From assembly GCA_964016885.1 (NCBI GenBank), contig OZ024740.1, forward strand, positions 124,682,001 to 124,746,000: DNA of 64,000 nucleotides. Direction: 5' to 3'. The position numbers were made by a program, and so were the translations under genes. Shown here in pieces: positions 1 through 64,000 of the stretch. The DNA is from Eledone cirrhosa (lineage: Eukaryota). The notes under the pieces are model-generated. The model ran no database searches. It was not told the DNA's origin and saw only the letters and a program-made list of their open reading frames with translations. Numbering within the stretch: position 1 is the first letter of the stretch; the number at the start of each line of letters is the position of its first letter.

Positions 1-235
1 CAGTTTAGCAGACGCTTATTATAGCGCTTGCTTTGTTCGTTTGTCAACAAACTGAACAGCCTGAATTTATGCCATACGGTGTTAAGGCAACCACGTCACC
101 TTTTTGTTCAACACTGACACAGGAACGATGTACTAGTTTCAAGCTTGTTAGCTATCATCAGCACCGTTTACCCATCTGCCAGATAGTTGAACGTTCGAAA
201 GTATATACTTTCCTTATGAAAATTAACGGCTGAGC
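1..235 (-). mobile_element. Family A HHR-bearing repeat (retrozyme-like), partial monomer cut by window edge
   Basis: Homologous to the arrays at 54712-55662, 60207-61534 and 62789-63935 and to the foldback at 25070-25555; contains an intact HHR; ends in a TG/TA microsatellite. Confidence 0.85.
125..167 (-). ncRNA. Type I hammerhead ribozyme (family A)
   Basis: Minus strand: ACGGTG-CTGATGA-T-AGCT-AACA-AGCT-T-GAAA-CTA-GTA-CATCGT. 6-bp stem I (extendable over 106-192), 4-bp stem II, palindromic ACTAGT stem III, GUA cleavage triplet. Confidence 0.9.
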
Positions 236-236
236 A

Positions 237-273
<37 letters not shown>

Positions 274-1715: not shown

Positions 1716-4534
1716 ACATATATATAATCATCATCATTCTTATACCTGCTTTTCGTTTCTTGCAGTGGTCAGAGGAGTTTCCCTCAATTTACCACCTTGA
1801 CACATGAGTTTTATTGTTATTTTCAGTTTGAAAATTACAAATGTCAATGCAAACTTTAGAATTCAATTATCTTCTCATACAATGTTGTAATCAAAGAATT
1901 ATTAGATTAAATATCTTTTACTATACACACCATCAGTTTGCAAATACATATGTATGTAAATATATCTATGTATATAGATATGTGTATCTATAGACAAATA
2001 CATGTATCAAAAAGTGCACTCACAAACACATGTGCATGAAAACACAAACAAACTCACACACTCAGATGCAGGAAGATTTGGTGGCAATGATGTCAGGGGA
2101 AGATTCCTGCAGTTTGATAACAAAAGTATTAAGTGAGCTTTGGTAACTATTTCTATCAAACTGGCTTGTCATGTACCTAATATAATGTGATTCTAATTTA
2201 TTCAGTTATAACTCTTTAGTATATATATTTTTCTTGTGTTGAGTCAAAAGAAATCAATAGGTAGTGAAATACAGCTTAGAAATAGACAAGAGAGTAAAAT
2301 TACTTGACCAGAGGCCTTAGTATATCTAGTTTGATATGTCATTGTTCTACGTTCAAAACTTATCAGGGTTGATTTAGCTTTCCATCCTGTGTTGATAAAA
2401 CCTTTCCAATTAATCAACTAATGTAGCAGAGTTCATTGAATTATTTATACACTTTATCTATATTATGCTAATATTTCACATGGTGTCTGTATAAAATCAA
2501 TATATGAGTTACTTTAATGCTAAACAATTACTTGCTAATTTCATATAGATTAACAACATGAATTCAAATATGAATACTAACTTAATTAGTTATATGAGTT
2601 GGTTGAGTAGGTTGTGTGCTAGGCTACTGATGCAAAAAGGTTAATTGGTATAAACTGCTACAATTAGCATGATATTCTTCTTTTAAATAACCATGAAAAT
2701 ATCAAGCATTGACAGGTTGTTCTTGGTCCTCAGACTGCAATTTTCCTCAATAAATTGAGATGAAGGCATCATTCCTTTCAGTTGGTATTTGAGAATGCTC
2801 ATGATCCCTTGTTTAAACCAATTACTTCTTACACAATGTAAAATTGCTGAAAAAGTGTTGTACTATCTGCCGACTGTAACTCCTGCCAAAAGAATCATTG
2901 CATTTCCAGTGACATGAGGCAGGATATGGACTCAGAATGCACAGAGCTAGAACAAATATCACAAAATCTCCTGTCTAACTCTTTATTGATTCTGATAATC
3001 CATTGCCACTGGATTGGTACTTTATTTATCGATCTTGAATGGATTAAAGGCAACGTTTACCTCAGCAGGATTTGAACTCAGAAAGGAGAGGGTCAGAACA
3101 ATTAAAGAGGCAGTTAATCTGGTGCACTAACAACTCCCCCAATTCATCAGCTGTATACGTTAGCCATCATAATCATTGTTAGAAACTACTTCTACCATCA
3201 TAATCACATATGCTAGAATTTTAAATTTAGTCCTCATAGTATATGGTGCTAGCATACATCTGTCAAAGTGTATAGCTGTCATCATAATGAATATAAGTTA
3301 GAAAGACGATTCCTTCATCATAATCATATATGTTGGAAACAAATACATTAGCGGAAATTGTATATGTTTGAAAGGTACATCTGTCGTAATATATGTTAGA
3401 AAGATAATTTAGTTATCATGGTCACCACTACATTTATATTAACCCTTTCATTAGCATATGTCTACTGAAATTTGCTGCCCTTGATTTGAAAATCATGATA
3501 AAAAATAATTAAGTATATGGAAGGATTTAGTAATGTAATTAACTTTCACAGTATTAAGCTATTGTTTGGCAACATGCCATTCTTGAAAAAGACCATCAAA
3601 CTTTACCAGCACTGCGACACTAAATTAAATGTAATGAGGAATCAGAAATCAAATGGAGCGATCCAGTTTAGCCTGCATGGGACAAAGCAACCTCTTTAGT
3701 ATTTGCTACATGATGGAATACACTCAGTACGCCTCCTAAATGTGTGAACCAACAAACAGATACAAAGTCGAGTAGAAGAGACCCTTAAATCATGTGAAGT
3801 ACTTGCCATCCTTTTTAATGTAGGTACCATAACATGCACCTAATTCACTCTACAAAGGGGTTTGTAATTAAGTTGAGACATTGTAGAGTAGAGAGGACTG
3901 TGCAGTCTTACCAAGTACATGACAACTTCTCTAGTACTAGGGATATGATAAAGTAATCCCAGTATACTCTGTAAAGAACTAGTGATGGTGTCAAGATAAA
4001 AGAAACCCAGTTTTACTCTGTAAAGTAGTAGGGCTGGTTTCATGATAAAATGCATCTAGTACACTGTGTAAAGTGGTTGTCATTAGAAAGAACATCTAGC
4101 CATAGAAATAATGCCCAAATGAGCAACATATGAGCATCATGGGATCTCTCTAATCCCTCTGGTCTTGGACTATGTCAACCCAGTCTAACAATGCCAGGAT
4201 GGAAATCAGATATTAAATGATAATGATAATGATATTTGGAACATAACTTAACAAAGGTTTTTACAAAGAAATTATGACACATTAAAATAAATAAATTCAT
4301 GCCATAAAACAAGGAACAGTTTCAAGCAGTTCGATATTAAATGGGTTGACATTATTTTCCTTAAGTGTAAATGATTTCTGTTATATGTAAATAAACTTCT
4401 TGACAATGGGGTCATGTAGGGATCATATGGGTGGGCTGGTATATATGGTGAAAGGTTGTAGAAGCAAGTCAAAAGGGGGAGGGAAATAAGGCAGGAAGTG
4501 AAAGAAAGGAATTTTTAATTGTATCTATATCCAA

Positions 4535-6421: not shown

Positions 6422-9400
6422 TTACAGACACATACTCAGAGAAGGCCCATTCATTCGGGCCATACTTGCTTCTCTCACTCATCTTTCAACAAAATGCTGG
6501 GAAGAGAGCACTTCCCTCTCTACCCTGATTTTCCTTTTCAAATGAAATTTGAAAAAGTTAATCAGGGCATCACCGAAGAAGTAAGTGCTCGTCTTCAGCC
6601 CTTTCAAACGTGTCCACCATACTATCGCTTTCGCCATGGCCACCAGACAGATAAAAACTGCCTGCCCTTCCCGGTTAAAGGAAGAGGGCGGGGAAATCCT
6701 CACGATGGACTCAGCTGATAGCTGGATCCGTCCTACACGTGACAGCAGGTGTTCGACATAAACCCACAAGTCAGAAATGCTCGGACACTGGATGAGTGCG
6801 TGCAGGACGTTTTCGTCGCCCTGTGCGCATCTCGGACATGCCCGGCTTACGGCACCTCCATGCCTGTAAAGTTTATCCCCAACTGGCAAAGCTCCCCTGT
6901 AGCACTGCCAGGCCAGGGATTTCTGGAAGTTGTCCATAGGCCCCGGCCCAAAAGTCCTTCCAAAGAGATTGGCTAGTTGATTTTCGTCGACGCCCAAAGT
7001 TTCTCCAAGTACGTCGTCGCTCTTCCCCTCCACTAATCCCCTATAGAACGCCGAGGTGGAGTTTCCACCGATCACATTGCCCGATTGGTCGAGGGCTGTG
7101 AGCGCCTGAAGACATTCCAGTTTCCAAGCGCTCCCTCTCGGTCTTCGCTTCACCTAGGACTGCAGCTCCGTCAAGGAGACGATCTGGGGAAAAACGTGTC
7201 TAGCAAACGGCGACCACACCTGATCACCGTCGAGGAAGAGGTGGAGATGTCGTAGCCTGAGCGCGTGTCTGCGCATCATCAGCCACGGCATGCCCAGCCC
7301 TCCATGTAGCAGGTGTTGACAGCAGATGGACCGCCTGACCATCGGAGCGCGTCCCTTCCACAAAAAGCGAAAGAGCAAACGCTCAAGCGCAGTCAGGCGG
7401 GGCTTAGGACAAGCTACGACGGTCAGGCGATAGTAGATGACGTACGCGATGTACGCGTTAGCTACCTCCGCTCGACCTTTCAGGGATAGCTTCCGCTCGG
7501 CCCATTTCTGGGTGAGAGAAGCCACCCTGCTCGTCACCTCGTCCCAGTTTTTGTCCGTCTGGAGGTCTGGACCGAACCAGACCCCTAGCAATTTAACCGG
7601 TCCGTCCGTCTAGCGCCCGACGACGCTGTTGGACGGCATGGACCTGCCTCTCCAGGTGCCGAGCTGCAGGCCCACTGACTTTTCCTGGTTGATCATTGCT
7701 CCTGTCACCGCTTCGTATTCTCTTAGTGTAGTGCCGATCGCCTCGATGTGTTTGGCGTTCGACACCACTACGGTGACATCGTCCGCATATGCTGACACGG
7801 ATCTTCCGCATCCTAGTTCGCGCGGGACTCCCTCTCAACGTCTCCAGTTTGTGCAGTAATGGCTCGAGAGTCAATACGTACAATAGGGACGACAGGGGAC
7901 ATCCTTGGCGGACCGAGCGCATGATGTTGAACGGTTCCGAAAGGTGACCGTTCACTCTCACTACAGAGCAGATGTCGCTGTGCATGGCAGCGATCCAGCC
8001 TCTGAAGACGGGCCCAAAGCCAGCCGCCCTCAGGACTGCCGCTAGGTAACGATGGTCGACCCTTTCGAAGGCTTTCGACTGATCTAAGTTGATCAAAGAC
8101 CCACCCGTGCCAGGTTCCCTAGCTACCCTCTCTACGATGTATCGCATGAGGTGGAGGTTGTCGTGGATGGATCTGTCGGGAATGGCGCATGTCTGTACCT
8201 CCCCCACTAGACCACCAACGACAAGCGCCAACCTCTTTGCTCGCACCTTTGCCAAAATCTTGAACTCTGTGTTTAGCAGAGTTATGGGCCTAAAATTATC
8301 TATGTTATCCCCCTTGTTCGGATCCTTTCTCAGCAGCGCCACCGCTCCTTGGCTCACATAGCTGGGAATTCTCCCGTTCTGTTGCCAGTTGCAGTAGACG
8401 TCCGCCAAGAGGCCTCCGAACAAGTCTGGCATTTGTACGTAAATTTTATAGGGCAGACCATCCAAACCAAGCGATTTACCCCTTGTGCAGCCAGTCATTG
8501 CCTCCCGTACTTCAGTGGTTGTTATCGGCTTTTCGCAACACTCCGCCTCAGTGGTCGAAAGCCGCGGCAGTCCGTCGAGGTAGACACTAAAGTCCATCCC
8601 TCGATCCGGTCCGCCACTGCCCCCGAACAGTTGAGCGAAGTGTCGCTGAAAAGCTTCACACATTTGCCCGGGATCGAGTAGCATGCGCCCGTCGTGGTCC
8701 ACCAAAGACCGGATCGTGGCTTTGTTGCCACCACGCGCCTCCGCCACTCGGGCCCATTGAACGGCTTTCGTCCCCTCGTGTCTGAGAGCACGCACCCTAG
8801 CTCTGACAACGCAGCCTTCGTGCTTTGCATTGAAGAATTGGTCAAGGGCCAATTTCGCCGTAAGTACGTCGATCGCGATGCCTTTGCTAAGCGCCTCGTC
8901 TAATTTTCTAACTAATTCTCCCTCTGCTCTATTTTTCTTTCTTGCTAAAGCCTTACTAAACCTAGTGGACTCTATTCTAATTGCTCTTTTCAGAGCAAAC
9001 CACCACTTGTTGTTGACGATGGCCCCCGTCAACGCCCGCTTCACTAGTTCGCTAATTCGGTCTCTGTAGGCCTTGCGCGCTGGTAAGGACACGTTTAGCT
9101 TCCAGTAGCCGGTCCTCGTCTATGAAGCCTATCTAAATCAAGCACACAGATCACGAATTTGTGGTCCGTGTAGCTGACTATCTTGAATTGTGGACAGCCT
9201 ATGCTAAACCTATCTATTTCCCTACAAAATACTCTATCTAGATATGATCTGGATGACCCCTATGCGATTTTTCCAAGTCCACATTGGCACATTCGGGAAA
9301 TCCAATCGGTATCTGTCAGACAGTTCAAAACGCCTGAGCAGGTTGGTGAGGCTTTTGCACCCTCCTCCCCTATCCGCTGATCCCACACAGTCCCAGTGTG

Positions 9401-15519: not shown

Positions 15520-18500
15520 ATGGATGTGTTAAGAGTAGGATGTTTGAATGCACGTGGCCTTGGCTCAACTTGGAAGCAAGCAAAGCTTCTAAATGACCTC
15601 AGGTCATGTGGTATAATTGTAATGGTTATCTGTGAGACTCGGATCAGCGTCGTGCGGCAGCTGGACCCTACCTTCGATGACTTTGAGGTGCATGCATCTC
15701 TCTGTCAACCTGGAGGTGGGGGTGGGGTTGTCGTACTGCTGCAAAAAAACACCTGGGTCTTGCCGTACAGGTTGTTCACTCGGACCCGGAGGGTCGTTTG
15801 TTGGTGCTAGACGTTGGCAGTAGTGAAGGTGCGGCCTTGAGACTGGTCGCCGTCTACTCCCCTTTCGGAGCTGAACGGCCCGACTTCTTCCAGCGTTTGG
15901 AGACTTTTCTGGGAACGTCGCGTTCCCTGCTTCTAGCGGGGGATTGGAATGACATCCTAGATGCACGTTGGGACTATGCAGGAGCATGTCCTGATAGAGG
16001 TTACTCGACCGTTTTAACTTGGTCGATAGATATCGACTAGATTTTCCAACTGTGCCTACCTGGACTTGGAGAAACCACAGTGGTCAATCTCGATCGTACT
16101 TAGATAGATTCTTAGTTAGAAGTAAGGATAGGGACATATTAAGCTGTCCAGAAATGCGCACGGTTGGCTATACGGATCACAAATTAGTGACCTGCGTAGT
16201 CAATCTCGAGAAAACACATAAACAGGGTCCCGGTTACTGGAAACTTAATTTGTCTTTACCGGCAAAAGAGACTTACAGAAATCGGATTAGCAGATTAGTT
16301 AAGGAGAGGTTGATGGGTGCAATCGTCAACAACCGATGGTGGGCATCTCTCAAAAGAGAGATTAGAACAGAATCAATAAGTTATAGCAAGATGTTAGCTG
16401 CCGATAGGAATAGAAACGAGAAAGAATTAACAGGTAAATTAGAAGAGGCAATCAAGAGCGAAGATGTGGCCAGAGTGCTGGCATCGAGGACGGCCTTGAA
16501 CCAGTTTTTCGATGCAAAGCACGAAGGCTGCATCATTCGAAGTAAAATACGTGCTCTAGGTAATGAGGGGGCCAAAGCCGTTGGCTGGGCCCGCGTGACA
16601 GAAGCTAAGAGTGGAAATCGATCCACCATTCGGTCGTTGCAAGACGAGGATGGACGGGTGATCCGGGAGCCTAAGCAGATGTGCGAGGCCTTTCAAAGGC
16701 ACTTTGCCCGATTATTCGGGGGAGGCGAGGGTCCGGGCGAGGACGTGGATTTCGGTCCATACCTCGACGGCCTGCCGCGTCTCTCGAGCGAAGAGGCAGA
16801 GTCCTGCGAGGGACCAATCTCGGCTGATGAGATCGGAGATGCGCTGAGCCAATGCAGCAAACGCAAATTTCCAGGTCTCGATGGTATACCTTACGAACTT
16901 TATTTAGCAATGCCGGTCTTCTTCTCCGAACTCCTCGAAGCGGTCTACTGCAATTGGCAGCAGAACGGGAGAATTCCTTGTTCTGTAGCCAAGGGCGTAG
17001 TCTCGCTGGTGAGGAAGGACGAGAACAAGGGGGATAGTATAAATAATTTTCGGCCCATAACCCTGCTAAACACAGAGTTAAAGATTTTGGCCAAGGTGTT
17101 AGCAAAGAGGTTAGCGCTTGTCATGGGTAGCCTGGTGGGAGATGCGCAGACATGTGCTATCCCATCCAGGTCCATTCACGATAACCTCCACCTCATGCGA
17201 TACATCATAGAGAGGGTTGGCAACAAACCCGGCTTCGGTGGGGCCCTGATCAACGTGGATCAGTCTAAGGCCTTCGATAGGGTCGACCATGGTTACCTGG
17301 ATGCGGTGCTAGCGGCGGCTGGGTTCGGTCCTGTTTTCAGAGGCTGGATCACTGCCTTACATAGCAAACACATCTGATCTAGGATCAAGGTGAACGGCTA
17401 CCTTTCGAAGCCATTCGAAATCACACGATCCATTCGACAGGGGTGCCCTCTCTCCTCCCTTCTGTACGTATTGACTCTCGAGCCTTTACTGAGGAAGTTA
17501 GAGTTGTTTCAGGGTATCCCCCTGGAACCAGGATTGAGCAAAGCGGTGTCGGCCTACGCCGATGACGTAACAGTAATGGTATCGACCGACTCGGAGATCG
17601 AGGCGATCGGTACCTTACTGGAGGATTACGAAAGGTTGTCAGGAGCGAAACTGAACCGGGAAAAATCCATCGGGCTGCAACTCGGAACGTGGAGAGGCAG
17701 ACCGATGCCTCCCGACGGTGTCGCCGGTAAAGTTGCTTGGGATCTGGTTTGGACCGGACCTCCAGGTGGAAAAGAACTGGGACGAGGTTACGATCAAGGT
17801 GTTTGCACTAACCCAGAAATGGGCCAAGTGTAAGCTGTCCCTAAAAGGCCGGGCGGAGGTGGCGAACCTTTACATAGCGTCCGTCACTTACTACCGCCTG
17901 ACTGTCGTGCCTTGCCCTAAGGAAACACTCACCACCATGGAACGCATGCTCTTCCAATTTCTTTGGAAGAAGCGCCCTCCTATGGTGAGAAGATCCATCT
18001 GCTGCCAACAACCTTCGAAAGGAGGGCTGGGGATGCCGTGGTTGATGATGCGTAGGCACGCATTAAGGCTACGGCACCTACAAGTATTCCTCACTGGTCA
18101 ACCAGTGTGGGCTCCGTTCGTGAAACGAGCCTTTCCGAGACTCGTCTCGCTCACCGAGCTGCAGTCCTGGGTCAAGCAAAGATCCGGAAAACTGGGAGAC
18201 TGGCACACTGAGTGTGCTCAGGCGCTCAGGGCTCTCTGGCAAGCGGGCCAGGCCATCGGTGGAGAATCCACCTCATCATTCTATAGAGGGTTGGTGGCTA
18301 GCAGGGGCGATGACACCCTTGGAGAGTCGCTGGACATGGAAGAGGACGAACTGGTCAGCCTGTTCGGTAGGACTTTCGGCCCGGGTCCAATGGACAACTT
18401 CCAGAAGTCACTAGCCTGGCAGTGCTACCGGGGGGCTCTACCCGTTCGAGAGAGGCTCTACAGACACGGGCGCCCAGGCAGGGATCCCTCGAAAAAGATT

Positions 18501-18917
18501 TGCCCTAGATGCGTGCGTCACGAAGAAACCGTTGCGCACGCATTGGTGCAATGTCCGGGCATGGCTGATCTGTGGGGCTACGCCGAACGACTGCTGTCGC
18601 GGGTGGCGCCGATTCGATTGACCGCCGAGTCCGTGATGACAATCAAACCGCCTCCCCTCTTCACAAAGGAAGCAAAGGCGGTTTTTCTGTGCGTAATAGC
18701 CATGTTGAAAGAGGTTGTTTGGTGGACACGATTGAAAGGTCTGAGGTCAGGCAACTTCCTCTCTGGCCATAGTCTGGTCTACTTCTTCCGATATCACTTC
18801 GGAAGAAGGATAAGAATGGAGAGAGAGGTGCTTGGCCACAGCCAGTTTTATGAAAGGTGGGTGATAGTGGCGAGAATGGCTCGTGTAAATGGGCCTTCTC
18901 TGTATACCATCCTGTAG
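15520..18917 (+). pseudogene. Tx1 ORF2 (APE + RT + zf-RVT) with about four frameshifts
   Basis: CLNARGL, ICETR, GDWN, YLDRF, TDHK, GYWKLN, RQGCPLS, AYADD, CPRC..HALVQC; frame breaks near 15750, 16015, 17372 and 17725. Confidence 0.93.
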
Positions 18918-24145: not shown

Positions 24146-24998
24146 TCACCTTGATCACTTTAACTGACCAGTCTGGCGGGCGTCCATCGGCACCGCTGGT
24201 CACAGCACGCCATCCATTCCTCTCTGTATCGTGCTTTCCCCATCCACGTAGTGCCAATCATATTCCTAAAATCGTAACTCCACCTTCGTGGAGGCCTTTC
24301 GAGAGGTCGTTTCTGCTCGCGCGGGTACCACTCGCCAACTGCGCGGGTCCACCGATTATCGGTGAACCGGGCGACGTGTCCAGCCCATCTGAACTTGCTG
24401 CGCATATATTCCGTGTTGACGTCTCTCACGCCGGACTTCTGTCTGATGACTTCGCTCCTGATGTGCTCTCTCAACGAGATTCCTAGCATTGATCTCTCCA
24501 TGGTTCTTTGAGACGTTACCAGCCTCTGCTCTTCTCCCTTCGTTGTAGCCCCAGTTCCACTGCCATATAACTGGAAAGGCGGTGTCAACATCAACGGCGA
24601 GATACTTACCCACCTCCGTTTCGCTGATGACATCGTACTCATCGCTGAAACCACGGATCAGCTTCAGACTATGCTGACGGAGCTCGACATCAAAAGCTCT
24701 GCAGCAGGCCTCAAGATGAACCGCATGAAAACGAAGTTGATACGGTCCGACAACGTACCAACTGGTCGAATGGAGGTTGGCGGTGATGAAATAGAGGAGG
24801 TGGAGGAATACATCTACCTATGACAAGAAGTGAACATGCGTCGAGACATTGAGAGGGAGATCTCGCGGAGAGTAAGGGCCGAATGGAAGGCGTTCGACGG
24901 CATAAGGGATGTGCTCAAAGGGAGGTTGGACAAGACCACCCGCACCAACCTCTTCAATAGCACAGTCTTTCCTGCAATGTTATATGGCAATGAAACAT
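24146..24998 (-). mobile_element. RTE-1-like LINE 3' fragment with 5' inversion
   Basis: Minus 24146-24570 encodes the C-terminus (RWAGHVARFTDNRWT); plus 24566-24998 encodes the upstream part (LTHLRFADDIVLIA...MLYGNET). Confidence 0.88.
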
Positions 24999-25069: not shown

Positions 25070-25074
<5 letters not shown>

Positions 25075-25127
25075 GTAAGTATGTATGTACACGTACATAC
25101 ATATGTGTATACAGACGTACAGTAGCA

Positions 25128-25189
<62 letters not shown>

Positions 25190-25442
25190 CACATACAGGT
25201 ACACATATATATATGTACGTATCAGTTTAGCGAACGTTTATTATAACGCCCGCTTTGTCCGTTTGTAAACAAGCGAACAGCCTGATTTATGCCATACGGT
25301 GTTAAGGCAACCACGTCACCTTTTTTTGCCTTAACACCGTATGGCATAAATCAGGCTGTTCGCTTGTTTACAAACGGACAAAGCGGGCGTTATAATAAAC
25401 GTTCGCTAAACTGATACGTACATATATATATGTGTACCTGTA

Positions 25443-25475
<33 letters not shown>

Positions 25476-25555
25476 GCATGCTACTGTACGTCTGTATACA
25501 TACTTACATTTAAGTAAGTGCCATACTAAGAGTGAGAAATGAAATTTCGTTTCAT
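25070..25555. mobile_element. Family A foldback insertion, truncated before the HHR
   Basis: Arms 25070-25310 and 25326-25555, loop 25311-25325; same subfamily as 1-235; flanked by (TA)n. Confidence 0.88.
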
Positions 25556-25635
25556 TATATTACAACTTATATATATATATATATATATATATATGGGTAG
25601 GCTTGGATCTGTGTACGCGCTGGTATAAGTATGTG

Positions 25636-54471: not shown

Positions 54472-54678
54472 ATGTTATAAGTAAAAAATATGAAATGAGA
54501 TTTAAAATCTGTTAAAAATTGGAAGTGAGGCTGGAAAAATAAAGGGAAATATAGATAAGAAAAAATATATATCAAAGAAGGGTAAGAGAAATAACATATA
54601 AAAATATATAGCAATATATAAAAAGACATACACACATTCAGATATAAGTAAAATATATGTATATGTATATATACGCAC

Positions 54679-54716
<38 letters not shown>

Positions 54717-54976
54717 GGAAAAATGAAACGAAATTTCGTTTCACACTCTTAGTACGGCTGTTACTTAAATATAAGTATGTACACGTACATACATATATGT
54801 ATACAGAAGAACAGTAGTATGTATATATATATACATACATGCACACATATATATATGTACGTATGGATTCACCGAACATTTATTATAATGCTCGGTGTGT
54901 TTGTAAACAAACATCCCGTATTAAGCCGTAGTGTCTAGCAACCATCGTTGCTCGTTTGTTCAACACTGACAAAGGA

Positions 54977-55019
54977 ACGCTGTACTAGTTTCAAGCTTAT
55001 TAGCTATCGTCAGCAACGT
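54977..55019 (-). ncRNA. Type I hammerhead ribozyme (family A)
   Basis: ACGTTG-CTGACGA-TAGCTAATAAGCTT-GAAA-CTA-GTA-CAGCGT. Confidence 0.9.
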
Positions 55020-55398
55020 ATACCTTCCTGCCAGATTGTTGAACGTATATATTTACCTTATGCATATTAACAGCTGAGTAGCCCAATTTGCATATCGTGT
55101 GGATTAATCGGCCGGGTGCACCGAAAACGATAAACGGAAAAAATGAAACGAAATTTCATTTCCCACACTTAGTACGGCTGTTACTTAAATATAAGTATGT
55201 ACACGTACATACATATATGTATACAGACGTACAGTAGTATGTATATATATATACATACATGCACACATATATATATATGTACGTATGGATTCACCGAACA
55301 TTTATTATAATGCTCCGTGTGTTTGTAAACAAGCATCACGTATTAAGCCGTAGTGTCTAGCAACGATCGTTGCTCGTTTGTTCAACACACACAAAGGA

Positions 55399-55441
55399 AC
55401 GCTGTACTAGTTTCAAGCTTATTAGCTATCGTCAGCAACGT
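55399..55441 (-). ncRNA. Type I hammerhead ribozyme (family A)
   Basis: Same motif, 422 nt from the previous copy. Confidence 0.9.
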
Positions 55442-55657
55442 ATACCTTCCTGCCATATATATATGTGTGCATGTATGTATATGTATATATACATAATACT
55501 GTACGTTTGTTTACAAACACACAGAGCATTATAATAAATGTTCGGTGTATCTATACGTACATATATATATGTGTGCATGTATGTATGTATATATATATAT
55601 ATATATATACATACTACTGTACGTCTGTATACATATATGTATGTACGGGTACATACT

Positions 55658-55700
<43 letters not shown>

Positions 55701-56188: not shown

Positions 56189-58142
56189 AGAAGCAAAAAA
56201 TTGCTTATTGTGATCCAGTTCGTGGTTAAGAAAGCCAGTTTCATGGATGGTTTCAACGCACGGTTAGGGGTAACTCCACAAGTAACTCCAGAAGTATCTA
56301 AGTTTATACAATTTGACATTAACGATTATTACTCATCTATATCCCCCAACACCTTGGATAAAGCCTTAGCATTCGCCAAATCCAATTCTGACATAACAGA
56401 CGACGAGATAAAAATCATATTAGCTGCTAGGAAAACAATAATTAAATTTGAAAACGCCTATTGGGAACGTAAGGATAGATTAAATAACTTTGACATCACG
56501 GTGGGGGCTAACGACTCGGCTCAAGTCACAGACTTAGTAGGTATTTACATAGCCCATAGTTTACAAAGCGAGTTTAGCGACCTTCACGGTGGAATCTACA
56601 GAGACGACGCCCTTCTCCTAGTTAAGAACCTAAATAACCATTGCATAGAAAGACTCCGTAAGAATATTAGAAAGACTCTCGGAAAACTAGACCTTAGCAT
56701 AACGTACAAGTATAGCACTAAAACATTTAACTTTCTAGATGTGACGCTTAACCTAAATACGGGACTTATAAGACCTTTTCACAAGATTAATGAAAACTTA
56801 GCATACATCAACTGTAACTCAAACCACCCACTATCTATAATTAAATCCATTCCACGCAACATATCCCTTAGGATCTCCCGCCTCTCATCTAACCGGCAAA
56901 TCTTCGAAGAACATGCAGAATACTACAATACCGCATTAGACAAGGCAGGCCACTTAGATAGAGTAGAATATATAGATGAAAGCCTCTGTGAAGCACACAC
57001 GAACACGCATAACACAAACTCCAGAAACACACGCATACACACATTTACGCATAGAACTGCAAAGTATACGGCTAATAGAAGTACAACATCGAAATCAAAC
57101 AAGTCACGCAGTAGAAAATATATTTGGTATAACCCTATATTTAACACCTCTATTAGTACTAACCTACCCTCTACTTTCTTTAGAATAATAAATGGGCACT
57201 TTCCAGATTCACATAGATACAGCAAAATCCTTAACACTAAATCTATTAGACTATCCTACTCCACGGCACCAAATATAGAAGCACACATTAAGATGCTTAA
57301 CGCTAAAAAGATACATAACAACACCAAAACACAAATTTACAACAATAACAATACAATTACCACCGAACACAACAGAATATCTAATACACAACCACCCGCT
57401 AATAGGCAAACAAAACGTAACACTCTTGTTCAGGCATCGCAGCCCACAAATAATGCCAAAGTTGCCCATAACAAGAAATGCAACTGCCACCTACCTGAAA
57501 CCTGTCCATTACAAAATGAATGTATGCAGTCTAACCTGGTTTACCAATGCACAGTGGAATCAGACAACCAGAAATGGTATTACATCGGAGCGACTGGGAA
57601 TACTTTTAAAGCTCGTTGGTATACACACCGTTACGCAATGAAACATTCCCAGCACCGTTATGTAACTACCCTTGCAAACAAGACCTGGCAACTGAGGGAA
57701 AGTAACCATCAATACACCCTGAAGTGGAAAAAATTATCAAACGCGCCCCCATATCGGAGTGGTATGAGAAGCTGTCGATTATGCGACCTTGAGCTGTTCC
57801 ACATCTTAAGTTCGAAGAATAGGTTACTCAACAATAAAATTGAGAGATCAATTTATTGTAACCATTGACTCAAAGAGAAATTTTCGCACTACAAATCGAA
57901 CACTTAACCTCTTACTACCAACTGACAAACTGCATATACTTAGACTTTATACCCTCTTATATCTAGACCCTTTAATTACCCACAAAACCAATTCATATAT
58001 CCCCCCTTCTCCCCCATTCCTCTTCTATTTCTTCGTTTTCTTCCTTCCTTCCCCCTTCTTGGCTATCTTTTCTTTTCTTCCTTCTCACCCCCTTCTTTGC
58101 TTTTATTTTTGTCATTATTATCTTTATTTTATATTTTTTATT

Positions 58143-58175
<33 letters not shown>

Positions 58176-58182
58176 ATGTATG

Positions 58183-58235
<53 letters not shown>

Positions 58236-58263
58236 TTGTGTGTGTATATATATGTATGTGTAT

Positions 58264-58307
<44 letters not shown>

Positions 58308-58796
58308 CTCTTTATATCTCCCCCCCCCCACCTCTCTCTCTCTCCCTCTCTATCCATCCCTCCCACTATTATCTATTTAATTCTCTTTAACTCACTACAC
58401 TCCACGACATGATGTCTGCTATCAAAACTGACCAAAGAATCCTTCCACCTCTACCCCTACCTCCACCTCTACCCCTACCTCCACCTCAGTTTGTCATTCT
58501 ACTTCCTACCTCTTCCCCCTTCCTCTCTCTCTCTATACTATGCCGTCTGTCCCCCCACTTCCCGATTCCTCTCTCTCTATACTAGTAAATACAATTCCAA
58601 ATAAATGTTTTTCTCTATATATTAAGAACTATTTTAAGAGTAACTCACTATTTTGAAAATTTGGACTGTGAACAACAATTATAATTGAGTGGCTGCTATT
58701 TGCAGTATAGCAATATAAGGTTGCACTTACCAATGAAACGGTCGTAAATACCTGGATTAAACCCTTCTCTTAATGCTTACCTGTGTTTTCTCTTTT
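56183..58796 (+). mobile_element. Penelope-like retroelement insertion in (TA)n, Hydra-clade-like
   Basis: (TA)n at both ends; pyrimidine-rich 3' region with internal microsatellites; clade assignment from motif recall only; 3' boundary uncertain. Confidence 0.65.
56201..57868 (+). CDS. Penelope-like element RT + C-terminal GIY-YIG endonuclease, 5'-truncated (homology starts ~56290)
   Basis: FIQFDINDYYSSI, GANDS, GIYRDD, FNFLDVTL, SNHP, CNCx5C, LVYQC..YYIG..FKARWYTH, CRLC..CNH; no internal stops. The first ~30 codons are probably not element-derived. Confidence 0.9.
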   Translation: MLIVIQFVVKKASFMDGFNARLGVTPQVTPEVSKFIQFDINDYYSSISPNTLDKALAFAKSNSDITDDEIKIILAARKTIIKFENAYWERKDRLNNFDITVGANDSAQVTDLVGIYIAHSLQSEFSDLHGGIYRDDALLLVKNLNNHCIERLRKNIRKTLGKLDLSITYKYSTKTFNFLDVTLNLNTGLIRPFHKINENLAYINCNSNHPLSIIKSIPRNISLRISRLSSNRQIFEEHAEYYNTALDKAGHLDRVEYIDESLCEAHTNTHNTNSRNTRIHTFTHRTAKYTANRSTTSKSNKSRSRKYIWYNPIFNTSISTNLPSTFFRIINGHFPDSHRYSKILNTKSIRLSYSTAPNIEAHIKMLNAKKIHNNTKTQIYNNNNTITTEHNRISNTQPPANRQTKRNTLVQASQPTNNAKVAHNKKCNCHLPETCPLQNECMQSNLVYQCTVESDNQKWYYIGATGNTFKARWYTHRYAMKHSQHRYVTTLANKTWQLRESNHQYTLKWKKLSNAPPYRSGMRSCRLCDLELFHILSSKNRLLNNKIERSIYCNH

Positions 58797-59660: not shown

Positions 59661-60200
59661 ATCATCATCATCTTCACCGTTTTACGTCCATTCTTCCACG
59701 CTAGCATTGGTTAGACGGGTTGTCCTGTTGTGGGCAGTGTCCGGTCGGCTGACCATGCCTTGCTCATACGGGAACTGATTCTGGCTTGATTTCTACAGCT
59801 GGATGCCCTTCATAACACCAACCTCATTTACAGTGAGTGCTGGGTGCTTTTTTTCCGTGGCGCCTACACGTCCACTTTACAGTGTGGGCTGGGTGCTTTT
59901 TTATCGTGGCACCTCCACGACCACTTTGCAGTGGGAGGGAATATTGTCTATATGTTTCAGCTTCGGCTTGTACCCGTGGGGGTTTTGGTCTTGTGTATTA
60001 CTGCATGAGGCCAGAGGTGACGGTTGTGTGTCATCGCTTTTGAGAAGTTTAATTGGGTAAGATCGGCTTTTATCACCTCTTCCCAGGTCTTCTTGGGTCT
60101 CCCCACTCCGCGGTTTCCATCGACTTCTAATGCTCTGCACCTTTTTATGTAGCTGTCATCCTTCATACGCATCAAGGTGTCCATACCAATGCAACTGCCA
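59661..60200 (-). mobile_element. RTE LINE 3' fragment
   Basis: MRMKDDSYIKRCRALEVDGNRGVGRPKKTW; (GAT)n tail facing the previous element. Confidence 0.85.
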
Positions 60201-60206
60201 TATTTA

Positions 60207-61534
<1,328 letters not shown>

Positions 61535-61923
61535 TCCTGCATTGAACCACCTAGGTACTATGACATAACCTGTGTATTTGCTGGCATGGGCGTGCATCTG
61601 TGCGCTTATGTTAGTTGATATATTAAATTATCTATATTTATCTCCAAATCACTGATTTGTCGAGCAAACTTGTCAAAACCACTTCTAAAAAAATTTTTTT
61701 TTTTGGGGTGTTAGTAGGCGTCAGTCATCTTACCATCCCATTCCTTCTAACTAGCCTCTGTGTCACGTGATTGATTCTTTAGAATCGGCCATTTGACTTG
61801 AAGCAGTGAGAATTTCGGTACATAGAATTCAGTCCTCGCAAGCTGTTCGATCTACCGAATTATTATTATTTTTATATGAGCCGCCAGTGTCCGCGCATTG
61901 CCTGGAGACTTAACTGAGAATAG

Positions 61924-62005
61924 ACTTCCTGATGACGCAATGAATTCTCGACAGTTGGATTACATAACTGTCTTTATCCCATTGCAGAAACTAATTAGTT
62001 GGAGT
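61924..62005 (+). ncRNA. Type I hammerhead ribozyme (family C)
   Basis: ACTTC-CTGATGA-C-GCAATG..GACAGTT..AACTGTC..CATTGC-A-GAAA-CTAATTA-GTT-GGAGT; palindromic ACTAATTAGT stem III, GUU triplet. Confidence 0.87.
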
Positions 62006-62022
62006 GAAAATTTAAGTAAGAA

Positions 62023-62063
<41 letters not shown>

Positions 62064-62509
62064 ATTTTTTTAAAAAAATATTTTCTTATTTTACGTCCTT
62101 TATATTATTGTTCTGCATTCTCCTGCATTGAACCACCTAGGTACTATGACATAACCTGTGTATTTGCTGGCATGGGCGTGCATCTGTGCGCTTATGTTAG
62201 TTGATATATTAAATTATCTATATTTATCTCCAAATCACTGATTTGTCGAGCAAACTTGTCAAAACCACTTCTAAAAAAATTTTTTTTTTTGGGGTGTTAG
62301 TAGGCGTCAGTCATCTTACCATCCCATTCCTTCTAACTAGCCTCTGTGTCACGTGATTGATTCTTTAGAATCGGCCATTTGACTTGAAGCAGTGAGAATT
62401 TCGGTACATAGAATTCAGTCCTCGCAAGCTGTTCGATCTACCGAATTATTATTATTTTTATATGAGCCGCCAGTGTCCGCGCATTGCCTGGAGACTTAAC
62501 TGAGAATAG

Positions 62510-62591
62510 ACTTCCTGATGACGCAATGAATTCTCGACAGTTGGATTACATAACTGTCTTTATCCCATTGCAGAAACTAATTAGTTGGAGT
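62510..62591 (+). ncRNA. Type I hammerhead ribozyme (family C, second unit)
   Basis: Same motif 586 nt downstream. Confidence 0.87.
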
Positions 62592-62609
62592 GAAAATTTA
62601 AGTAAGAAA

Positions 62610-62651
<42 letters not shown>

Positions 62652-62690
62652 TTTTAAAAAAATATTTTCTTATTTTACGTCCTTTATATT

Positions 62691-62731
<41 letters not shown>

Positions 62732-62998
62732 ACATATATTTATAAATATTTATATATATATACATTTTATATATATAAATACATTTATATATAAGTATGT
62801 ACACGTACATACATATATGTTTACCGACGTACAGTAGTATGTATATATATATATACATACATGCACACATATATATATGCACGTATGGATTCACCGAACA
62901 TTTATTATAATGCTCGGTGTGTTTGTAAACAAACATCCCGTATTAAGCCGTAGTGTCTAGCGACCACCGTTGCTCGTTTGTTCAACACTGACAAAGGA

Positions 62999-63041
62999 AC
63001 GCTGTACTAGTTTCAAGCTTGTTAGCTATCGTCAGCAACGT
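62999..63041 (-). ncRNA. Type I hammerhead ribozyme (family A)
   Basis: ACGTTG-CTGACGA-TAGCTAACAAGCTT-GAAA-CTA-GTA-CAGCGT; the next copy (63425-63458) is cut by the inversion. Confidence 0.9.
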
Positions 63042-63624
63042 ATACCTTCCTGCCAGATTGTTGAACGTATATACTTACCTTATGCATATTAACGGCTGAG
63101 TAGCCCAATTTGCATATCGAGTGGGTTAATCGGCCGGGTGCACCGAAAACGATAAACGGAAAAAATGAAACGATATTTCATTTCCCACTCTTAGTACGGC
63201 TGTTACTTAAATATAAGTATGTACACGTACATACATATATGTATACCGACGTACAGTAGTATGTATATATATATATATATACATACATGCACACATATAT
63301 ATATGCACGTATGGATTCACCGAACATTTATTATAATGCTCGGTGTGTTTGTAAACAAACATCCCGTATTAAGCCGTAGTGTCTAGCAACCACCGTTGCT
63401 CGTTTGTTCAACACTGACAAAGGAACGCTGTACTAGTTTCAAGCTTGTTAGCTATCGTACTAACAGCCGTACTAAGAGTGGGAAATGAAATATCGTTTCA
63501 TTTTTTCCGTTTATCGTTTTCGGTGCACCCGGCCGATTAACCCACTCGATATGCAAATTGGGCTACTCAGCCGTTAATATGCATAAGGTAAGTATATACG
63601 TTCAACAATCTGGCAGGAAGGTAT

Positions 63625-63667
63625 ACGTTGCTGACGATAGCTAACAAGCTTGAAACTAGTACAGCGT
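63625..63667 (+). ncRNA. Type I hammerhead ribozyme (family A)
   Basis: ACGTTG-CTGACGA-TAGCTAACAAGCTT-GAAA-CTA-GTA-CAGCGT; predicted cleavage after 63661. Confidence 0.92.
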
Positions 63668-64000
63668 TCCTTTGTCAGTGTTGAACAAACGAGCAACGGT
63701 GGTTGCTAGACACTACGGCTTAATACGGGATGTTTGTTTACAAACACACCGAGCATTATAATAAATGTTCTGTGAATCCATACGTGCATATATATATGTG
63801 TGCATGTATGTATATATATATATACATACTACTGTACGTCGGTATACATATATGTATGTACGTGTACATACTTATATTTAAGTAACAGCCGTACTAAGAG
63901 TGGGAAATGAAATATCGTTTCATTTTTTCCGTTTACATTTATATATATATATATATATTGCAGGGTAGGCTGCTCGCTCGGTGAAATGTAACGTACTAAT

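Follow-up and report, generated by a model that had tools for sequence, protein, structure and literature searches.

The systems closest to the repeat described here are the EN+ Penelope-like elements and the animal non-LTR retrozymes. Insertions of EN+ Penelope-like elements consist, according to excerpts of PMC3846280 and PMC8557442, of a pLTR, an inverted 5'-truncated copy and a tail at one end. The same layout occurs in several Penelope-like clades, and (TA)n targeting is reported for Naiad, Hydra and probably Neptune (excerpts of PMC8557442). Sequences of the pLTR alone suffice for mobilisation in trans, as stated in the available part of PMC3846280. A purified vertebrate Penelope-like enzyme cuts and extends both target strands, and the tail was explained as the stretch between two adjacent internal reverse-transcription start sites; hammerhead cleavage was dispensable, and the two sites served both strands alike (Frangieh et al. 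2024, PMC11167929). Retrozymes were proposed to depend on Penelope-like enzymes (PMC7229834; 10.64898/2026.07.22.740005), mainly from a shared distribution and the similarity to pLTRs, and in the accessible text of the preprint its authors regard the mechanism of retrozyme mobilisation as still to be characterised. The main texts of both papers make no mention of tails or inverted insertions, the preprint having the word "inverted" solely within a cited title, and a literature search, with supplements outside its scope, found no mapped retrozyme insertion ends. The architecture is already known for autonomous Penelope-like elements, and the Penelope-retrozyme partnership is known as a hypothesis; added here are Penelope-type insertion scars in a non-autonomous retrozyme, together with a counted pairing of short and long ends.

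Family A is a non-coding tandem repeat with a unit of 426 nt and a minimal type-I hammerhead-like motif; its period is 420-432 nt in the window, i.e., the whole stretch of 64,000 nucleotides that was analysed. The reference monomer M is the reverse complement of window 63005-63430, a young genomic copy. M1 denotes the first base 3' of the predicted hammerhead cut, thus M426/M1 is the cut position. In any frame of a trimer of M the longest stop-free stretch has 63 aa, so family A has no ORF and can only be non-autonomous, whereas EN+ Penelope-like elements carry one ORF for a telomerase-like reverse transcriptase and a GIY-YIG endonuclease. Like these elements, family A forms partial tandems that are truncated on the 5' side, has an inverted copy placed head to head and an extension at one outward end, probably has two internal start sites, is independent of ribozyme cleavage and has targets that are AT-rich or (TA)n; the Hydra, Naiad and Neptune clades likewise insert into (TA)n microsatellites (excerpts of PMC8557442). 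It differs in the tail, which has 56-59 nt against the published 30-40 bp, in having 3-5 nt in common with the TA target at both start sites, and in a near-obligate pairing of tailed with untailed ends, whereas the Penelope-like papers, in the parts available, call the tail "optional" or place it "often" at one end. The animal retrozymes (PMC7229834; 10.64898/2026.07.22.740005) resemble family A as non-coding head-to-tail repeats of a few hundred nt with high copy number, and, as far as family A can be judged by reading, in a minimal type-I hammerhead-like motif that occurs once in each unit and has a short, palindromic helix III. The comparison was made on genomic copies, in which a head-to-tail, non-coding organisation with no LTR, PBS or PPT was found.

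Genome-wide counts were obtained with short exact patterns, each with a reversed-pattern control. For a 32-nt internal motif (M294-325) the count over the genome of 3.0 Gb was at least 5,309 (control 0). A sample blind to the ends was drawn from the first 100 places listed for this motif, which all lie on contig C1, from 1.6 to 62.4 Mb; 68 non-redundant loci and the window were analysed, with 9 overlapping loci swapped for wider stretches. The segmental duplicate L025 was left out of the end count, leaving 123 uncensored 3' ends of arms. Two further samples, intended to be free of the length bias that the internal motif brings with it, comprised the first 30 loci for each end-plus-TA pattern, chosen by one end only; one duplicate was dropped from each (n=29, n=29). 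Altogether the sampling covered the first 75 Mb of one chromosome and the window. A satellite-like tandem array of family A of about 21 kb (21-26 kb) is located at C1:51.772-51.794 Mb (G000:C1:51772396-51793781; L076, L077), with a non-canonical 3' end at M104 and a 5' end at M53. Long arrays of family A may have grown at the DNA level after insertion.

Short and long ends of family A insertions

Two 3' ends recur in family A. The short end, S, lies at M216-227 (..TACTTATA), the long end, L, at M272-279 (..TTTTTCCGTTTA). The copies in the window and their flanks are:

103-237, minus strand: fragment of a diverged subfamily, beside (TA)13 at 242-267
25070-25556: foldback of the diverged subfamily; left arm antisense with short-type end at 25070, right arm sense, ending at M267
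54653-54710: (TA)n-rich flank of an L end, target microsatellite (TRF 54653-54713)
54711/54712, minus strand: L-end junction, ..CCGTTTAT followed by ATATAT, adjoining (TA)n
54711-55458, minus strand: arm with L end, 1.75 monomers from M373 back to M279, 94-95% identity to M
54977-55019, minus strand: hammerhead-like motif, found by reading, helices I and II in the fold; second copy at 55399-55441
55454-55515, plus strand: inter-arm junction zone, an extra short sense piece equal to M126-191 (BLAST), then arm restart near M60-73
55494-55662, plus strand: inverted partner arm, M60-M220, S end at about 55662
55663-55688: (TA)n flank of the S end (TRF 55561-55688)
60199-60706, minus strand: older arm broken into three pieces; contains a microsatellite expansion and an internal jump; 3' end non-canonical, at M346
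60726-61535, plus strand: older arm of 1.9 monomers with L end (M277), junction ..CCATTT followed by CCTGCA
62785-63458, minus strand: arm with S end at about 62785-62790, M399 back to M224; the young copy behind reference M
63461-63935, plus strand: its partner arm, M226 to M278, with L end, junction ..CCGTTTA followed by CATT

On the plus strand the junction at 54711/54712 reads TAAACGGAAAAA, the reverse complement of TTTTTCCGTTTA. The S end of the partner arm at 55662 reads ..TACTTATAT followed by AAATATATA, also printed as ..GGGTACATACTTATAT followed by AAATATATATA; the sequence of the zone between these arms suggests template jumps at the inversion point of the 54711-55662 foldback. In the 62785-63935 foldback 421 nt of the arms are 99% complementary. 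The diverged copy has the minus-strand short end ..CATACTTACATTTA followed by TATA at 25070 and an inversion centre near 25322, and is a near-perfect palindrome; its M267 end recurs in a second copy of the diverged subfamily (L073). The L end at 61535 directly meets the 5' end of a different repeat of 586 nt, with no TA between them. All end coordinates of the initial annotation were found as given, by direct reading and by BLAST to M. It had described the long end at 25555 as shorter than the others, and this arm does end at M267 (position 25556), 11-12 nt short. The one short and one long end that it had assigned to each of three arrays were recovered in the head-to-head foldbacks 25070-25556, 54711-55662 and 62785-63935; the fourth foldback, 60199-61535, combines an L end with the non-canonical end M346.

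Both ends stood out sharply in the ends-blind sample. Ninety-nine of the 123 uncensored 3' ends (68 loci and the window) fell into M214-228 or M266-281, as opposed to 9.0 expected under a uniform spread, the two end windows presenting 31 of 426 positions (binomial p ~1e-88). These were 55 L ends (M266-281) and 44 S ends (M214-228), and 24 ends were elsewhere. None of the 123 was within 15 nt of the ribozyme cut (M426/M1). The two sharp peaks that had been foretold from the window were thus present, and the view that priming does not take place at the cleaved ribozyme end was borne out. Some of the other ends are later interruptions, e.g., the one in L069, which is flanked by pLTR sequence from an unrelated Penelope-like element. 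BLAST places most S ends at M223, reading one mismatch into the TA flank; the true boundary in the printed junctions is ..GTACATACTTATA(T) followed by TATATA, that is M216-220, ambiguous with the flank. The L junctions read ..TTTCATTTTTTCCGTTTA(T) followed by ATATAT. Flanks opening with (TA)4 were seen beside 35 of the 55 L ends and 27 of the 44 S ends, but beside no more than 3 of the 24 others. Where the flank was not TA, the ends were still at M220-227 and M272-278, within 7 nt of the same sites. Poly(A) or another simple tail was absent from the ends in the printed junctions. Genome-wide, the 15-mer preceding the L end was followed 3,730 times by (TA)n and 4,749 times by the next bases of the monomer (controls 0), and one sequence variant of the S end plus (TA)n was counted 1,567 times (control 162).

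Short ends were paired with long ends. The ends-blind pipeline yielded 38 head-to-head foldbacks, 23 of them S+L, 3 L+L, 1 S+S and 11 with a canonical and another end; one S+L (L025) and one L+L (L062) among them are duplicated loci. Upon inspection, 5' flanks of apparently single arms hid short inverted arms, of 52 nt equal to the tail alone in L003 and as fragments of 13-20 nt in L008 and L055. The partners in the end-ascertained samples were as follows:

L-ascertained arms (n=29): S partner 12, L partner 0, other 2, none 15, censored 0
S-ascertained arms (n=29): S partner 0 credible, L partner 16, other 5, none 6, censored 2

One "S" partner call among the S-ascertained arms was discounted as pure TA of low complexity. 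Pairing of S with L was significant in these samples (Fisher p = 3e-8). Over all samples, collated by hand with overlaps removed by coordinate, 48 S+L foldbacks faced 3 L+L and 1 doubtful S+S (48/52 against 50%, binomial p = 6.5e-11). Of the three L+L foldbacks, L048 and L031 have a flank other than TA beside the short arm, and L062 is old and duplicated. A further 16 foldbacks had one non-canonical end, with L as the canonical partner in 9 and S in 7. The tail, from about M221 to M279, has 56-59 nt, and 44 nt in the old subfamily. With outward 3' ends and this extra stretch at one end only, the insertions present the inverted-repeat-plus-tail signature of Penelope in its published form, as had been supposed from the window. 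The scars agree with the pair of internal start sites that was determined in vitro on the vertebrate element. A tail that was loosely described ("often at one end") becomes a count, which constrains models of the priming of both target strands. No strand difference in site use was observed in vitro, hence a strict S+L pairing is not predicted by those data (PMC11167929).

In the end-ascertained samples long ends were solitary in 15 of 29 cases and short ends in 6 of 27 uncensored cases, a difference that is not significant; the long site may be the primary start. Tiny two-armed insertions were observed in (TA)n on C1 (L139, L144, L126, L008, L090), with arms of 28+59, 19+52 or 65+87 nt. The long arm of L139 coincides exactly with the tail (M221-279), and M193-220 makes up the short arm. 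Some tiny insertions carry pieces of 13-20 nt of the long end alone and resemble abortive double initiations.

Template, start sites and insertion

The 5' ends of arms, 209 in number, were scattered over the entire monomer, as the initial annotation had expected for the inversion points. Twelve were at the ribozyme cut (M1-20; 9.8 expected), 33 in the self-complementary, TA-rich M115-155 (20.1 expected, post hoc) and 22 in M390-415 inside the hammerhead (12.8 expected, post hoc p = 0.009). The 37 inter-arm junctions had overlaps of 1-9 nt in 18 cases, a zero gap in one and a filler of 1-49 nt in 18. The 5' coordinates of the two arms agreed within 25 nt in only 2 of 36 foldbacks, i.e., the 38 of the pipeline counted once, minus L025 and the second copy of L062. 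In the end-ascertained samples L arms had a median length of 220 nt and S arms one of 424 nt. Among 29 L arms 11 crossed the cut site and 10 were longer than one monomer; among 28 S arms the corresponding numbers were 19 and 14. The longest arm, in L071, has about 3,158 nt or about 7.4 monomers. Arms read through the ribozyme site over up to 7.4 monomers, therefore the template would have been an uncleaved multimeric RNA or a circle. The multimeric or circular template that had been proposed from the window is supported in this one respect, the read-through, which fits a circle as well as a linear multimer. The arms of one foldback were no more alike than each was to young copies elsewhere, a comparison for origin from the same RNA that is blunted by the star-like phylogeny. 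The arms of the first sample that are close to one monomer in length resulted from ascertainment by an internal motif; in the end-ascertained sample 428-462 nt was measured for only 4 of the 29 long arms, which is suggestive at most.

The region M100-300 folds below shuffled sequences (z = -4.8), with stem-loops just 5' of S and of L. Predicted are a long hairpin at M119-207, a small hairpin on the near-palindrome M211-226, which holds the short site, and a 12-bp hairpin at M246-270, whose end is 3-7 nt short of the long site. At S as well as at L, 3-5 nt of UAU or UAUAU could pair with a (TA)n end. However, the 44-nt TA/TG run M127-170 was almost never an end, with 6 of 123 ends in M121-212, some of them alignment artefacts at expanded microsatellites. 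This longer TA run is hardly used, thus microhomology alone does not pick the sites. Of the earlier suggestion of two TA-like priming sites, the pairing potential at both sites stood, while TA-likeness as such did not set them apart from the longer run. Site choice looks directed by structure or protein, with microhomology assisting.

Family A is probably inserted in trans by a Penelope-like reverse transcriptase/endonuclease into (TA)n under cleavage of both strands, as the two fixed ends, their pairing and the flanks suggest. The Penelope-like enzyme would cut both strands of the (TA)n target, and each 3'-OH would prime one cDNA. S and L would be internal start sites of reverse transcription, each just 3' of a predicted stem-loop, S following M119-207 and the small hairpin M211-226, L following M246-270. 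The 3-5 nt of UAU at each start site would pair with the TA primer, and two antisense cDNAs, copied from an uncleaved multimer or circle, would extend inward and join at microhomology. More speculatively, the strict S+L pairing may reflect a coordinated use of both start sites within one event. That each integration uses S and L once, with a dimeric Penelope-type enzyme placed on adjacent stem-loop sites of one RNA and priming both cut strands, is a tentative and rather doubtful extension. If it were true, high-copy retrozymes would be a natural record, event by event, of a coordination invisible to bulk assays in vitro.

Four other explanations were weighed. All arms might have ended at L at first, with S ends arising secondarily by slippage or deletion between TATAT (M216-220) and the flanking (TA)n; both junctions are indeed ambiguous with the TA flank by 3-5 nt, and the TA microsatellites here are long and unstable. 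With such an origin L+L foldbacks should be numerous, above all among young copies, and S+S should occur at times, whereas the counts were 3 and 1 doubtful next to 48 S+L. S+L is already the state of the youngest foldbacks, in which the arms are 99% alike (window 62785-63935, L041, L046), and S ends are present at non-TA flanks too, so that we consider this origin highly improbable. A single cDNA that folds back on a palindrome and copies itself, a snap-back model discussed for Penelope in the available part of PMC3846280, would also create an inverted arm. Self-complementary TA-rich stretches in the monomer, the mild excess of 5' ends at M115-155 (33 of 209) and the near-perfect palindrome at 25070-25556 are in its favour. 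Yet arms made in this manner have to meet at an equal monomer coordinate, which was approached within 25 nt in the 2 foldbacks mentioned above; arm lengths are strongly unequal, e.g., 52 against 442 nt, and the copied arm should share the end site of its template rather than fall 56-59 nt short. We regard self-priming as very unlikely.

Growth and inversion of arrays at the DNA level, with the ends as accidents of recombination between TA repeats, would make family A a satellite. The 21-26 kb array at C1:51.772-51.794 Mb with its non-canonical end fits this, and the accessible text of preprint 10.64898/2026.07.22.740005 proposes local amplification of retrozyme arrays by unequal crossover. Against it speak the short copies (median arm 220-424 nt), which are dispersed in their thousands in unrelated surroundings and have the identical two ends, the truncation on the 5' side, and two-armed insertions of as little as 71-87 nt in total; a satellite origin is scarcely credible. 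LINE reverse-transcriptase frames are present in the window, and a non-LTR reverse transcriptase might have copied the repeat and inverted it by twin priming. Twin priming is a known source of inverted 5' parts. It produces the 3' end of the element on one side and an internal point on the other, whereas family A has two defined 3' sites, and the ends lack the poly(A) or simple tail of such insertions. Two fixed internal start sites with a tail have been described only for Penelope-like elements (PMC11167929), and a LINE-type mobilisation appears highly improbable to us. Insertion by a Penelope-like enzyme accounts best for the ends.

Hammerhead-like motif, candidate partners and neighbouring elements

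The motif reads on its sense strand ACGUUG-CUGACGA-U-AGCU-(AACA or AAUA)-AGCU-U-GAAA-C-UA-G-U-A, the predicted cut, and CAGCGU. Its parts are helix I (ACGUUG/CAGCGU, 6 bp), the core CUGACGA, helix II (AGCU-AACA/AAUA-AGCU, 4 bp), GAAA and helix III (2 bp within the palindrome ACUAGU); the cut triplet is GUA. In the copy at 54977-55019 cleavage is predicted between 54982 and 54983; the distance to the L end at 54712 is 271 nt, in keeping with the earlier estimate of about 274 nt. Core and helix I pairing were retained in 172 of 174 motifs of the sampled loci, with a covariation of U.G to G.U, and the core box was CUGACGA in 168 of the 174. At one helix I position the 174 motifs had U.G in 144 cases, G.U in 17, A-U in 5, U-A in 3, C-G in 3 and no pair in 2; the G.U form is a both-sided change between subfamilies. 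The same layout with a short palindromic helix III is described, in the available part of PMC4209133, for metazoan type-I hammerheads acting as dimers. The Rfam hammerhead models gave no match at the gathering score, and none at E up to 10 over 62700-64000. The usual G10.1-C11.1 pair that closes helix II is absent, U and U flanking the AGCU/AGCU stem in 156 of 174 motifs, and the local fold of the motif was no better than that of shuffled sequences. For these three reasons we call the motif hammerhead-like. The only sub-threshold Rfam matches on 62700-64000 were miRNA-like, on the TA/TG hairpin. This hairpin, M127-215 (e.g., window 63788-63872), matched mir-297, mir-466 and similar families with 51.8 bits against a gathering score of 90 and was rejected as a miRNA, the match being a composition effect.

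Sequences of the GIY-YIG type are frequent in the genome: a first look gave 10,595 candidates, and all of the 150 that were scored were above the Pfam cut-off. At least one uninterrupted frame of 938 aa combines RVT_1 and GIY-YIG. Twenty GIY-YIG loci (12 + 8, out of at least 150 scored matches) were compared with M, and there was no similarity outside TA-rich low complexity, with the sole exception of an unrelated family A copy beside one of them. A resemblance of 10-13 nt in one 3' UTR, noticed by eye, was not significant. In a degenerate EN+ element (L078/L157) the 3' end adjoins (TA)n; by reading, its GIY-YIG core contains two cysteines, therefore it is not Hydra-looking, and it shares no sequence with M. 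Within L157 2161-4349 (G000:C2:30095161-30097349) an older family A foldback, with a short end at 2161 and an M266 end at 3480, faces the 3' end of this degenerate element across one long (TA)n tract. The same microsatellites are used by several elements. Another Penelope-like element, L151 (G000:C1:145869300-145878300, minus strand), lies outside TA repeats and has no sequence relationship with family A; the family A arm in L069 is interrupted by pLTR sequence of L151.

A second retrozyme-like family occupies window 61535-62706 on the plus strand, with a unit of 586 nt present twice, 300 nt of it 100% identical. Its motif CUGAUGA...GAAAC-UAAUUAGU is at about 61929-62001 and is repeated 586 nt further on, with the helix III palindrome ACTAATTAGT. 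The 3' end ..TTTTACGTCCTTTATAT adjoins (TA)n at about 62690 and resembles the long end of family A; the end sequence also flanks a family A copy in L109. The joint with the family A long end at 61535 could be due to a template switch onto the long site or to a later insertion. Between two family A arrays, at 56189-58412 on the plus strand, lie two open frames next to each other, with 559 and 200 aa and no Pfam match. Reverse-transcriptase frames of the LINE type (RVT_1, zf-RVT) are at 6479-9119 on the minus and at 15998-18917 on the plus strand, and an RT-like coding remnant at 24800-24990 just precedes the family A copy at 25070.
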